This document shows positions 3-25,612 of a stretch of 64,000 bases of DNA, in pieces (position 1 is the stretch's first letter; the number at the start of each line of letters is the position of its first letter). The notes beneath the pieces are model-generated. The model ran no database searches and was not told where the DNA came from. It saw only the letters and a list, made by a program, of their open reading frames with translations. This DNA is from an uncultured Acidobacteriota bacterium (GTDB lineage: Bacteria; Acidobacteriota; Thermoanaerobaculia; Multivoradales; UBA5704). The stretch is taken from assembly GCA_963770895.1 (NCBI GenBank), contig CAVYRF010000002.1:3936001-4000000 (forward strand), in the 5' to 3' direction. The position numbers and the translations under genes are program-made.

Positions 3-3000
3 GTGCCGCGCGAGCTGCTGAGCCGGCCGGACTACGTTCCGGCCAAGGGCATCCTCGCCGGCGTCGAGCTGTTCGACCACGAGCTCTTCGGTATCAGCGC
101 CCGGCTCGCCCAGGTCATGGACCCGCAGCAGCGGCTGTTTCTCGAATGCGCCTGGGAGGCGCTGGAGGACGCCGGCCACGACCCGGAGCGCTACGCCGGG
201 GCGATCGGCGTCTACGCCGGCAGCGCGCCCAGCACGTACCTGCTGCACCACGTGCTGCCCAACTACCGGCAGGTCGCCAACCTCGGCGAGCTGCAGATCA
301 CCGCCGCCAACGAGAAGGACTACCTGCCCACCCAGACGTCCTACAAGCTCAACCTGCGCGGCCCGAGCCTGGCGGTGCAGACCGCCTGCTCGAGCAGCCT
401 GGTGGCGGTCCACCTGGCCTGCCAGAGCCTGCTCGGCAACGAGTGCGACATGGCGCTCGCCGGCGGCGTGTCGATCCGCTTCCCGGAGCGCAGCGGCTAC
501 CTCTACCAGGAGGGCGGCATCCTGTCGCCGGATGGCCACTGCCGCCCGTTCGACGCCGGCGCCCGCGGCACGGTGAGCTCGTCGGGGCTGGGGATCGTGG
601 TGCTCAAGCGCTACGCCGACGCGGTGGCCGACGGCGACTCGATCCGCGCCCTGCTGCTCGGTTCGGCGATCAACAACGACGGGGCGCGCAAGATGGGCTT
701 CACCGCTCCCAGCCTGGACGGGCAGGCGCGGGTGGTCGCCGAGGCGCTGGCGATGGCCGGCGTCGATGCCGCGACCATCGGCAGCATCGAGGCGCACGGC
801 ACCGGCACCGCGATCGGCGACCCGATCGAGGTCGCGGCGCTGCGGCGGGCGCTGGGCCAGGCGCCGCGGCGGGGCGGCGAGCGCTGCGCCCTCGGTTCGC
901 TCAAGAGCAACATCGGTCACCTGGATACCGCCGCCGGAGTCGCCGGCCTGATCAAGGCGGTGCTTTCGGTCGAGCAGGGAGTGATCCCTCCCTGCCTGCA
1001 CTTCACCGCGGCGAACCCGGCGCTCGAGCTGGCGGACGGGCCGTTCTTCGTCAACGACCGGCTGCGCGAATGGCGGCCGGCGAGCGGCCCGCGGCGGGCC
1101 GGGGTGAGCTCGTTCGGCGTCGGCGGCACCAACGCCCACGTGGTGCTCGAAGAGGCGCCGCCGCAGCCGGCGCGGCCGGCGCCGCGCCCCTGGCACGTGC
1201 TGGTGGTCTCGGGCCGCGGCGCCGCGGCGGCGGATGCCGCGTGCCGGCGGCTGGCAGGGCACCTGGAAGCCCATCCGGAGATCGCCCTTGCCGACGCCGC
1301 CTACACCCTGCAGGTGGGGCGGCGCGCATTCGACGACCGCCGTGCGCTGGTCTGCCGCGCCGGTGCCGCCGGCGAGGCGGCGGCGGTCGCGGCCGAGCGG
1401 TGGCGCGGGCGGCGAGCGAGCCGGCGCGAAAGGCCGGTGGCGTTCCTCTTCCCCGGCCAGGGTGCGCAGCATCCGGGCATGGCGGAGGAGCTTTACGCCG
1501 AGGAGGCGGTCTTCCGCGGCGAGGTCGACCGCGCCTGCGAGCGGATCGCCGCCGACGTCGGCATGGACCTGCGGCGGCTCATCTTCCCGCCGCCTGGGGA
1601 GCGTGCGGCGGCGGCCGAACGGCTGGCCGAGACGGCCATCGCGCAGCCGGCGCTGTTCGTCGTCGAGTACGCCCTGGCGCAGCTCTGGCGATCGCTGGGC
1701 GTCGTGCCGCAGGCGATGCTCGGGCACAGCGTCGGCGAGATCGTCTGCGCCTGCCTGGCGGGCGTCTTCGCGCCGGCGGACGCGCTGCGGCTGGTGGTGG
1801 CCCGCGGCCGCCTGATGCAGGTGCTGCCGCGCGGCGCCATGCTGAGCGTGGCGCTGCCGGCGGCGGAGCTGGTGCCGCGGCTCGACCGGCGGCTGGCGCT
1901 GGCGGCGGTCAACGCCGCCGACCGCACGGTGGTGTCCGGCGAGAGCGCGGCGGTCGAGGAGCTCGCACGGGCGCTCGCCGCGGCCGGCGTCTCGGCACGG
2001 CGCCTCGACACGTCGCACGCCTTCCACTCGCCGATGATGGAGCCGGTGCGGGCCGCGGTGGCCGAGCTGGTGCGCGGCATGAAGCTGGACACGCCACGGA
2101 TCCCCTGGGTGTCCAACGTCACCGGCGGCTGGATCACCGCCCAGCAGGCGGCCGATCCGGCCTACTGGGCCGAGCACCTCTGCCGCACGGTGCGTTTTGC
2201 CGACGGTCTGGCGCTCCTCGCCGAGAAAGGGCACGCGCTCGTCGAGGTGGGGCCCGGCAGGACGCTGAGCTCGCTCGCACGTCGCGGCGGCGGCGGCGGC
2301 GGCGAGGAGCGGGCGCCGGTCGTTGCCTCGCTCCCCGCTGCCGGCGGGGGGCGGCCGCAGATCGCCGGCCTGCTCGACGGCGTGGCCGAGCTCTGGCTGT
2401 CCGGCGTCGCGGTCGACTTCCAGGCGTACCACCGCGGCGCGCCGCGGCGGCGCGTGCCGCTCCCCACCTACCCCTTCGCCAGGCAGAGAGCGTGGCTGGA
2501 GCCGGCCGCGGCGCGCGCCGCGGCCGCTCCCGCCGCCGGCTTGCCGCAGGGCCGACCCGCGGCGCCCGGCGCCGCGGCGCAGGAGGTTCTTGTGCCCGAG
2601 ATCGAGACGGCCGAGGCGGCCGGCGTGATCCCCGCTCCCCCGCGCCTTGCCAGGATCCTGGCGACGCTGGGCGAGATCGTCAGCGACCTGCTCGGCATCC
2701 CCGCCGCAAGGATCGACGTCGACGTGCCGTTTCTCGAGGTCGGCATCGACTCGCTGGTGCTGATCCAGGCCAGCCAGGCGATCCACCAGCGCTTCGGGGT
2801 GAAGCTGTCGCTGGCCGAGCTGCTGGAGCAGTACACCACGCTGCGCCGGGTCGCCGTGGCGCTCGACGGCGCGCTGCCGGCGGCCGCGCTGGCCGAGCCC
2901 GTGCCTGCCGCCGCGCCGCCGGCCGCGGTGCCACCGGCCGCTCCGGCGCCGGTCGCGCCGCCGCCCGCCGAGGCGCCTGCCGCGCTGCCGGCGCCGGCCC

Positions 3001-24562: not shown

Positions 24563-25612
24563 GTGATCGACAACCCCGAGAGCGCCCCTGCCGCAGGCGG
24601 GATTCAGGGTCGGGCGCGGCGCCGCTCCATCGGTCTGACGCTCGAAAACCTGATCGAAACCCGCACCCTGACACCGCTGGGCGAGCTGCCCCTGGTGATC
24701 TCGCCGCGCGTCCCGGGGCTCGATCTCGCGGTGTGGGCGGCCGATCAACGCGGCTTCGTCGAGGCGAGCCTGCTGCGTCACGGCGGGATCCTCTTCCGCG
24801 GTTTCGCCATCGATCAGCCGCAGAAGCTCGAGACCTTCATCCATGCGATCTCCGGCGAGGCGCTCGAGTACCGCGAGCGCTCGTCGCCGCGCAGCGCCGT
24901 CGAAGGCCGTATCTATACTTCGACCGACTATCCGCCGACGCACTCGATCTTCCTGCACAACGAGAACTCCTACCAGACCGTCTGGCCGCTCAAGATCTTC
25001 TTCTGCTGCCAGACCCCGGCGGCTGAGGGCGGCGAGACGCCGATCGCCGACTGCCGGCGCGTGCTCGCCGGCATGGACCCCGCGGTGCGCGACCGCTTCA
25101 TCGACAAGGGGTGGATGTATGTGCGCAATTTCGGCGACGGTCTGGGGCTCGACTGGCCCACGGTCTTCCAGACCTCCGACAAGGCCGCGGTCGAGGAGCA
25201 CTGCCGCAAGAGCGGCATCCAGGTGGAGTGGAAGGCCGGCGATCGCCTGCGCACCCGCGCCATCCGGCCGGCGGTGACCCGGCATCCGAAGAGCGGCGAG
25301 ATGCTCTGGTTCAATCACGCTACCTTCTTCCACGTCTCGACCCTGGCGCCCGACATCCGCCGGGCCCTGCGCGCCGAGTTCACCGACGACGAGCTGCCGG
25401 CCAACACCTATTACGGCGACGGCAGCCCGATCGAGCCCGAAACGCTGGATCATCTGCGCCGTCTCTACGAGCAGGAGACGCTCTGCTTCCCATGGGAGAA
25501 GGGCGACGTCATGCTGCTCGACAACATGGTCGTCGCACACGGCCGCTCACCCTTCCGCGGCGAGCGCAAGATCCTGGTGGGCATGGCCGAGCCGGTACAG
25601 CGCGAAGCTTGA
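24563..25612 (+). CDS. TauD/TfdA-family Fe(II)/2-oxoglutarate dioxygenase (SyrP-like)
   Basis: YTSTDYP, LHNENSY (HxE), WFNH, DNMVVAHGR. Confidence 0.93.
   Translation: MIDNPESAPAAGGIQGRARRRSIGLTLENLIETRTLTPLGELPLVISPRVPGLDLAVWAADQRGFVEASLLRHGGILFRGFAIDQPQKLETFIHAISGEALEYRERSSPRSAVEGRIYTSTDYPPTHSIFLHNENSYQTVWPLKIFFCCQTPAAEGGETPIADCRRVLAGMDPAVRDRFIDKGWMYVRNFGDGLGLDWPTVFQTSDKAAVEEHCRKSGIQVEWKAGDRLRTRAIRPAVTRHPKSGEMLWFNHATFFHVSTLAPDIRRALRAEFTDDELPANTYYGDGSPIEPETLDHLRRLYEQETLCFPWEKGDVMLLDNMVVAHGRSPFRGERKILVGMAEPVQREA

Follow-up and report, generated by a model that had tools for sequence, protein, structure and literature searches.

A predicted five-gene NRPS-PKS assembly line with a mid-line aminotransferase unit in an uncultured acidobacterium

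We analyzed a stretch of 64,000 nucleotides (hereafter the window) of the genome of an uncultured Acidobacteriota bacterium, in which an initial annotation had placed, between positions 3 and 25612, a cluster of nonribosomal peptide synthetase (NRPS) and polyketide synthase (PKS) genes. Positions count from the first letter of the window, with negative numbers for the DNA upstream. The flagged stretch (1 to 25612) is the 3′ quarter of one NRPS-PKS line reaching from approximately -55,730 to 25,612, i.e., approximately 3,880,270 to 3,961,612 of contig G000:C2, with ~81 kb from its first megasynthase gene to a TauD-type gene. The megasynthase genes, called A to E, are five giant plus-strand frames in succession between -55,985 and 16,901, with a likely start of gene A at ~-55,730. 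Genes B and C overlap (stop of B with start of C), 27 bases separate gene C from gene D, and genes D and E overlap again, the ATG of gene E lying at -159. Within the window, the Pfam ketosynthase (KS) match begins at position 58 of the 252 of the profile. Thus, coordinate 3 is merely the window edge and not a border of the cluster, and the extent first proposed has to be enlarged by four megasynthase genes. We regard it as rather likely that genes A to E make up a single colinear assembly line that operates as proposed below.

The domains were mapped with Pfam on 57 overlapping 800-residue windows of the translations, and the map was repeated with hidden Markov models (HMMs) built from the cluster's own domains. 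Genes A to E encode 2 KS, 2 acyltransferase (AT), 1 aminotransferase (AMT), 2 methyltransferase (MT), 21 carrier (T), 20 condensation-family, 17 adenylation (A; one broken) and 1 thioesterase (TE) domains, corresponding to one loading carrier, 18 NRPS (amino-acid) modules and 2 PKS modules. All five frames are open over ~72 kb, with a G+C peak at codon position 3 throughout, except in the third module of gene B (B3). Gene A begins with a carrier resembling an acyl carrier protein (ACP), T0, followed by C-A(Gly-like)-T and C-A(Leu-like)-T, where C is a condensation domain and the presumed substrate is given in parentheses. Gene B has five C-A-T modules, whose A domains read Ala, Asp, Ala with a frameshifted core, one without assignment and one of an AHDPLQRD type. 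Gene C is arranged as KS-AT-spacer-T, Cy-A(Cys)-MT-T, C-A(Cys-like)-MT-T, C-A(Gln)-T-E and a terminal DCL-type C. Gene D opens with a C-like domain devoid of both His residues (pseudo-C), followed by A(Gln)-T and by Ser, Thr and Gly modules. A small gene, located between genes A and B, gave no Pfam match; its CxxC protein might target the product's Cys-type residues.

Several domains could be typed by their motifs. The first C domain of gene C contains DYLIADA, i.e., DxxxxD replacing HHxxxDG, which we take to be the mark of a heterocyclization (Cy) domain, and a Cys-type A domain (DLYNLSLIW) follows it. The domain after the Gln module of gene C is an epimerization (E) domain, with HHLVVDG and TIGR01720 matches of 138.4 and 139.4 bits (cut-off 74.2). 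Both KS domains keep the Cys, HGTGT and N(V/I)GH, and both AT domains keep GHSVGE and HAFH, presumably making them malonyl specific. GGDSI is found in the T preceding the E domain and in the T preceding the A-less C of gene E, and T0 of gene A has GLDSL, as PKS carriers do. In gene C, the spacer between AT and T (residues ~900 to 1290, ~400 residues) is in frame and Ala rich and lacks GxGxxG. It had no Pfam match at E ≤ 0.01, and its only NCBIfam match, to a "KR prefix" model (20.7 bits), was under the cut-off. It may represent a degenerate ketoreductase (KR)-like region.

Gene E, the part of the line that falls in the window, has the order KS-AT-T-AMT-C-A(Ser)-T-C-T-C-A(Ile-like)-T-C-A(Cys-like)-T-TE according to both Pfam and our own HMM map. 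Pfam alone found in the frame from 3 to 16904 five Condensation stretches (two in the first half and three in the second) and three AMP-binding stretches. All the genes and domains named in the initial annotation, from KS, AT, ACP and AMT through the Ser, A-less, Ile and Cys-like modules to the TE and the tailoring genes, are present. The substrate codes of the A domains (Table 1) were read at nine variable positions from motif anchors, by hand and by hmmalign. The two readings agreed except at position 278 of A2 and at the last two letters of B5. We took the code positions from a rule that we assume to hold, which the return of canonical codes supports, and the table of substrates is likewise our assumption. 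The DLYD-type Cys-like A domain of gene E recurs in module 2 of gene C and in the orthologous cluster described below.

Table 1. Positions of the features in and near the window, and codes of the A domains with their presumed substrates.
Feature	Position	Strand	Details
Window	contig G000:C2:3,936,001-4,000,000		Window G+C 66-77%; host genome 8.16 Mb, three contigs, 71% G+C
Gene between A and B	-48994..-48074 (L004:11006-11926)	+	307 aa; ribosome-binding site, lipoprotein-like signal, CxxC (thioredoxin-like)
Gene E, last megasynthase	1..16904 (true start -159)	+	5687 aa
KS	1..1160	+	Gene E aa 11-440, cut by window edge; active-site Cys, HGTGT, NIGHL present
AT	1443..2330	+	GHSVGE and HAFH
PKS carrier	2664..2870	+	GIDSL
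Class-III AMT	3375..4475	+	YGK lysine kept
C behind AMT	4620..5945	+	HHLVTDG, LTAAQ-type N-terminal motif; divergent from LCL group
A (Ser, DVWHISLID) and T	6054..7817	+	T motif GGDSI, as in the T before the E domain of gene C
A-less C-T (second amino-acid module of gene E)	7929..9569	+	C: LSPLQQG, PHLIMDG; T: GGHSL
C-A-T, Ile/Val-like	9615..12749	+	Code DAFFLGVTF
C-A-T, Cys-like	12792..16016	+	Code DLYDLSLVW, Asp at position 278
Terminal TE	16077..16901	+	GYSYG
Stand-alone short-chain dehydrogenase/reductase (SDR)	16915..17685	+	FabG-like; also adjoins the cluster in the two related loci (71 and 74%)
Carbamoyltransferase, NodU/CmcH type	17736..19757	+	Carbam_trans_N and Carbam_trans_C; absent from orthologous cluster
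GT-B fold protein	19800..21266 (1467 bp)	+	E296-x7-E304; rare family without Pfam model
ATP-grasp ligase-like protein	21281..22642	-	Glutathione synthetase / glutathionylspermidine synthetase fold
Cyclic-peptide ABC exporter (permease and ATPase)	22670..24394	+	TIGR01194, 471.9 bits (cut-off 286.2)
TauD/SyrP-like Fe(II)/2-oxoglutarate oxygenase	24563..25612	+	PF02668, 177.4 bits (cut-off 27)
A1			DILQFGMVY, Gly-like
A2			DAW(A/F)LGHVV, Leu-like
B1			DLFNCALTY, Ala
B2			DLTKVGHVG, Asp
B3			DLFNNALTY, Ala; read in shifted frame
B4			DVGSAALVY, no substrate reading
B5			DPRHFVL.., no substrate reading; AHDPLQRD motif
C1			DLYNLSLIW, Cys
C2			DLYDCSLVW, Cys-like, Asp at 278
C3 and D1			DAWQFGLID, Gln
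D2			DVWHVSLVD, Ser
D3			DFWNIGMVH, Thr
D4			DIIQQGLVW, Gly-like
E1			DVWHISLID, Ser
E2			DAFFLGVTF, Ile/Val-like
E3			DLYDLSLVW, Cys-like, Asp at 278

Among the genes downstream of gene E, that of the carbamoyltransferase encodes both family domains with scores above the cut-offs (Carbam_trans_N, 158.1 bits for a cut-off of 24; Carbam_trans_C, 227 bits for a cut-off of 27). The putative glycosyltransferase (GT) required structural comparisons. It had no Pfam or NCBIfam match at E ≤ 0.01, one of its distant relatives scored 17.7 bits against a curated glycosyltransferase model with a cut-off of 26.4, and the best E value of its profile against Protein Data Bank (PDB) sequences was 0.014. The family is small. 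Of 1.84 billion representatives, only 88 matched at E ≤ 0.001 and 48 at E ≤ 1e-30; one of the 88 carries the domain fused to the end of an NRPS C...A_C-T stretch. E296-x7-E304, which we take to be a mark of GT4 enzymes, is conserved in an alignment of 44 rows. The AF2 model (pLDDT 93.5) displays the two Rossmann domains of a GT-B fold, and the top matches listed by Foldseek in the PDB were BshA, MshA, PimB′ and glycogen synthase (E from ~1e-8 to 2e-10, TM-score up to 0.68). The modeled fold thus makes this protein a candidate GT-B glycosyltransferase.

The ATP-grasp-like protein was approached similarly. It had no Pfam match, and its sole NCBIfam match reached 16.2 bits for a cut-off of 350. 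None of the 120 homologues listed carries a Pfam domain; some are titled Thermoanaerobaculia, Longimicrobiaceae or Acidobacteriota. Its AF2 model (pLDDT 93.6) gave as top Foldseek matches glutathione synthetases, the ligase Cp1B (PMC12568646), glutathionylspermidine synthetases and YjfC/YgiC, with E values from 1e-15 to 1e-11. In a second large NRPS cluster of this genome, at C2:1750032-1819123, the ATP-grasp-like protein has a 43% paralogue, the TauD protein one of 71% and the AMT unit one of 52%.

The GT-like protein was used to look for related clusters. It found two loci in species-representative genomes, both assembled from metagenomes, in a Thermoanaerobaculum sp. (69%) and in a Thermoanaerobaculia bacterium (63%, fragment). 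It was not found in the 40 nearest relatives (9 of the same genus, 15 of the same family and 16 of the same order), nor in 400 genomes sampled from the class, where a stricter first look makes the count a floor. Full-length matches to AMT-C were present in 9 of the 40 relatives, the best (66%) within a frame of 2059 residues, indicating that such units are common in the lineage. The second metagenome genome has an intact GT-like gene at G422:C101:6230-7690 (71%) and a GT-like copy in three pieces, with a TGA inside, at G422:C73:20698-21600. In the second related locus (L009), a histidine kinase gene is located ~1.4 kb from the SDR gene, and MacB-type permease genes are found on both sides.

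The orthologous cluster is on contig G421:C100 of a soil metagenome genome titled Thermoanaerobaculum sp. We examined 135.8 kb of this contig and kept 44 frames after filtering by codon-position G+C. The order is a minus-strand MacB-type gene, A′ (63%), B′ (70%), C′ (71% over 6352 columns) and D′ (63%), followed by a 2052-residue KS-AT-T-AMT-C gene (62%), an SDR (71%) and the GT (69%). Next come two minus-strand genes, one methyltransferase-like and one PALP, and a set of three more NRPS genes with a TE at its end (58% identity to the corresponding part of gene E); a TauD gene (46%) separates the third of them from the second. Upstream, the contig has an ABC exporter gene (54%) and a gene for a weak homologue of the ATP-grasp-like protein (36%). 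The carbamoyltransferase had no match among the kept frames, its best matches in that genome (40 to 45%) being on other contigs. The domain strings of genes B, C and D are identical in the two clusters, and 14 of the 16 comparable A-domain codes are the same or differ at 1 or 2 positions, the others being B4 (Ala in the orthologue) and the Ile-like E2 (Gln in the orthologue). In the orthologue, too, the subunit preceding the KS-AT-T-AMT gene ends with a Gly module. This synteny supports the colinear order A-B-C-D-E.

Gene A′ has an additional first domain, for which the best specific NCBIfam models are fatty-acid-AMP ligases (FAAL), with NF004509 at 478.5 bits (cut-off 775), followed by FadD32, FadD21 and FadD28, all under their cut-offs. 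A GLDSL carrier comes after this domain. As the orthologue begins with a FAAL-like domain joined to an ACP, the product of the family is probably N-acylated and lipopeptide-like.

These data also bear on the cluster as it was first described, a self-contained unit in which the KS-AT-ACP-AMT would act on an acyl starter, as in MycA, to yield a carbamoylated, glycosylated beta-amino-acyl tetrapeptide. The order KS-AT-T-AMT-C does match that of MycA/McyE-type units, and the tailoring genes directly follow gene E. However, the window edge truncates the KS, and gene E starts before the end of gene D, a same-strand gene for four NRPS modules. The orthologue keeps the order D then E, and ahead of the KS there is neither a FAAL nor an ACP or loading module. 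We therefore regard this description as extremely improbable. The hybrid PKS-NRPS class of the cluster was correctly recognized, but the AMT unit belongs in the middle of the line, after Gly, and does not start a tetrapeptide.

The condensation-family domains (n = 20) were aligned with MAFFT, and a tree was built with FastTree. The terminal C of gene C (HHHLILDG, with LSPLQ at its N terminus) and the C of the A-less module of gene E are 46% identical and form sister branches with a support of 1.0; their LSPLQ-type motifs are presumably those of DCL-type domains. The first domain of gene D has LPALCAD where HHxxxD would be expected, with no His. Thus, a complete C and a pseudo-C face each other at the C/D border. 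Three subunits of the orthologue end with a full C, and each time the next one begins with a C-like domain in which a regex search found no HHxxxD-type motif. The C′/D′ border repeats this C/pseudo-C junction. By alignment, the Ser subunit of the orthologue starts as the gene D pseudo-C does, with LPALCCD and GFRLSPQQ (159 bits with Pfam), and it follows the subunit ending with the post-AMT C. In the genome studied here, two of the three junctions of the orthologue are fused, with a single C each. In this genome, four NRPS frames contain the pseudo-C motif, and at least one more of them follows a subunit ending T-C. Outside the cluster, LP[AG]LCAD was found in the NRPS frames C1:1607396-1626553, C2:3723418-3728046 and C2:1773866-1780588, and the subunit before the pseudo-C at C1:1615244 ends T-C. 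From these arrangements, the pseudo-C might be a docking partner for a trans-acting C domain. We did not find such a C/pseudo-C docking mode described, no literature search having been aimed at this point. The recurring junction represents a testable idea on the docking of NRPS subunits.

The similarity between the two DCL-type C domains also suggested a different reading, in which the gene order would not be the assembly order. The terminal C of gene C and T0 of gene A would form a split A-less module, and gene D would be the true start of the line. One of the two sister C domains indeed precedes an A-less T in cis, gene A begins with a bare T, and gene D opens with a domain lacking both His residues. 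In the orthologue, however, FAAL-ACP opens A′, and the C′/D′ border has the same C/pseudo-C organization. Moreover, an LPALCCD pseudo-C also opens the Ser subunit after the post-AMT C, where the pairing is unambiguous, and T0 is ACP-like (GLDSL), unlike the A-less T of gene E (GGHSL). This makes the split module very unlikely.

In the colinear assembly line that we favor, synthesis would start with acyl loading, by analogy with the FAAL-ACP of the orthologue, and the chain would grow from gene A to gene E. The first PKS module, in gene C, would add malonate. As the KR-like region lacks a Pfam match and GxGxxG, the stand-alone SDR may reduce the keto group. The Cy domain would then form a thiazoline, and one residue would be epimerized to D-Gln. 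With 14 NRPS modules and one PKS module ahead of it, and a Gly module directly before it, the KS-AT-T-AMT unit should extend peptidyl-Gly rather than a fatty acyl chain. The KS of gene E would do so with malonate, and the AMT would turn the beta-keto group into an amine, giving an in-chain unit of the 3,4-diaminobutanoyl (beta,gamma-diamino) type. Four further residues would be added before release by the TE, possibly with ring closure. The TauD protein, the carbamoyltransferase, the GT-B protein and the ATP-grasp ligase might decorate the product by hydroxylation, carbamoylation, glycosylation and ATP-dependent amide ligation, respectively, and the TIGR01194-class ABC transporter would export it. 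Glycosylation and carbamoylation are suggested by the presence of the genes only, and the carbamoyltransferase is missing from the orthologous cluster.

A more specific version of this proposal is a lipid-capped 18-residue peptide in which the diaminobutanoyl unit is a mid-line branch point and the TE forms a macrolactam, combined with subunit docking through the dead-C-like domain (LPALC[AC]D). The TE would close the last four residues onto the beta-amine, yielding a small macrolactam with a 14-residue tail, that is, the ring logic of the iturins moved to mid-chain. We consider this combination speculative and rather doubtful.

The closest known counterparts of the AMT unit help to place the line. 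MycA of the mycosubtilin/iturin systems is said to have the organization FAAL-ACP-KS-AT-ACP-AMT-C-A-T. As in MycA, a KS-AT-carrier-AMT-C unit in one polypeptide should convert a beta-keto thioester to a beta-amine before peptide extension, and a TE ends the line. The KS here, however, is predicted to be fed by a 14-residue peptidyl chain ending with Gly and not by a fatty acyl chain; there are 18 amino-acid modules rather than 7, with a second PKS module and Cy and MT domains; and the ligase-ACP loader of the family is at gene A, ~56 kb upstream in the line, and missing in this genome. Thus, the Gly-T of gene D, and no acyl ligase with ACP, directly precedes the KS, FAAL-ACP being at A′, and by its mid-line location the AMT unit lacks the defining context of an initiation module. 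McyE of the microcystin system is reportedly organized as KS-AT-ACP-AMT-C-A-T-C. It shares with gene E an embedded class-III AMT after a PKS carrier, with NRPS modules following, but its KS takes a polyketide chain from PKS subunits, and the host, module set and tailoring differ.

The puwainaphycin synthetase, as described in PMC4219810, resembles the orthologue in starting with a FAAL-like domain, but its beta-amino group belongs to the fatty acid that starts the chain, whereas the AMT of our line lies mid-line, after Gly. The initial annotation also drew a parallel with the occidiofungin (ocf) clusters. Table 1 of PMC9494966 describes a 58.1-kb ocf cluster with a stand-alone transaminase (ocfL, 1371 bp), a small GT gene of 657 bp, a halogenase, an epimerase and two LuxR regulators. 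General gene classes are indeed shared, with NRPS and hybrid NRPS-PKS genes, a GT, a hydroxylase, a cyclic-peptide transporter and TE release (PMC9494966). Compared by description only, however, our cluster differs by its size of ~81 kb, an embedded AMT, a 1467-bp GT-B gene, a carbamoyltransferase and an ATP-grasp protein, making the analogy loose. No halogenase or LuxR gene was present among the flanking genes scanned, and from the ocf gene set only the cyclic-peptide transporter class was recovered. The initial annotation had recognized no characterized pathway, and we also found no matching characterized cluster or compound entry in literature on the cluster features (MIBiG not compared). 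As judged from its sequence, the cluster is part of an uncharacterized, orphan NRPS-PKS family with some unusual architecture.

Compared with the orthologue, the cluster has three adenylation lesions. The first one concerns loading. No ligase precedes T0, and this carrier directly follows a divergent MacB gene, with ~440 bases between them. Upstream of gene A, we found no FAAL or other loader, the open reading frames coding for a MacB-type permease, a PAP2 protein and Pfam-negative products. Paralogues of the FAAL (49 to 58% identity) are found in this genome at five other loci only. The third lesion is the lack of an A domain in the second module of gene E, where the orthologue has one with the code DVLFWGIIN.

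The second lesion affects B3, which is intact in the orthologue (B3′). The A domain of B3 is in frame 0 at HMM positions 1 to 104 and 309 to 424 and in frame +1 at positions 110 to 314 (159 bits), and residues ~2800 to 3000 of gene B are the sole stretch of the line that is off pattern in codon-position G+C. We compared this region with contigs of four coded sequencing runs (X1, X2, X3 and X5). In X2 and X3, which correspond to a relative at ~97% identity (27 to 28 differences in 804 bases), there is an extra CG after L005:10197 and an extra C after L005:10756, exactly at both frame borders, showing that this close relative has an intact B3 frame. Relative to it, B3 has deletions of 2 bases and of 1 base at these respective sites, which put 186 codons of the A core out of frame. 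The deletions sum to three bases, so the downstream modules are kept in frame and the 5468-codon frame of gene B stays open. X1 and X5 look like the same strain (0 to 1 differences) and have no depth at either frameshift site, so that the deletions may be real in this strain or may be assembly errors.

The lesions raise the question of whether the cluster is a decaying relic without a product in this genome, only the intact orthologues being productive. Three independent adenylation lesions relative to G421, the intact B3 frame of the relative in runs X2 and X3 and the patchy distribution of the cluster, indicated by the lack of the GT gene in the genomes searched, all argue in this direction. 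Against it, five frames have remained open over ~72 kb with a coding pattern that holds except in B3, the two B3 deletions compensate each other, and the catalytic motifs of the KS, AT, AMT, T, C and TE domains are intact. Furthermore, B1 has the same Ala code and could load B3 in trans, trans loading of A-less modules is known from other systems, and five FAAL paralogues are available elsewhere in the genome. On balance, a relic appears possible but somewhat unlikely. From the sequence, a product would be formed only with loading in trans or by skipping modules, or synthesis may have ceased.

Several points weigh against a line functioning as we propose. Given its three lesions, this copy may not work as written, the B3 frameshifts could be assembly errors, and no RNA run covering the B3 region was available among the runs listed. 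The A-domain substrates depend on code tables that we assume, and the DVGSAALVY, DPRHFVL.. and DLYD.SLVW code types have no assigned substrate. What type the MT domains belong to, how the TE releases the chain and which target each tailoring enzyme has are all predictions. The cluster borders were drawn from gene content only, and the scheme leaves the 307-residue gene between A and B without a role. The compound, if made at all, should be a large hybrid peptide that combines a thiazoline with a D-residue, methylations and an in-chain beta,gamma-diamino unit and that might also bear carbamoyl and sugar groups. The flagged stretch by itself cannot be expressed as a pathway, and the three adenylation lesions make the intact orthologue the better expression target.

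The genome is very rich in NRPS genes: 80 open frames of contigs C1 and C2 together contain 248 A-domain matches above 150 bits. A single match to an MbtH-like motif was found in the whole genome, at C2:2497477, far from the cluster. Directly after the TauD gene, the minus strand codes for a histidine kinase, a response regulator and a beta-lactamase-fold protein (25720 to 29419). A type II thioesterase-like gene (PF00975, 158.8 bits) is located ~10 kb past the TauD gene, at 36346 to 37122 on the minus strand, beside a sigma-54 activator gene. Upstream of the cluster, at -76015 to -72911 on the plus strand (L003:3985-7089), there is a RamC-like class III lanthipeptide synthetase gene (RamC_N, kinase and LanC-like regions), whose product has an N-terminal signal-peptidase-like region. 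At the other end, a plus-strand frame that runs off the window (61696 to 63999) codes for a carrier and then an AMP-binding domain and is probably the start of another cluster.

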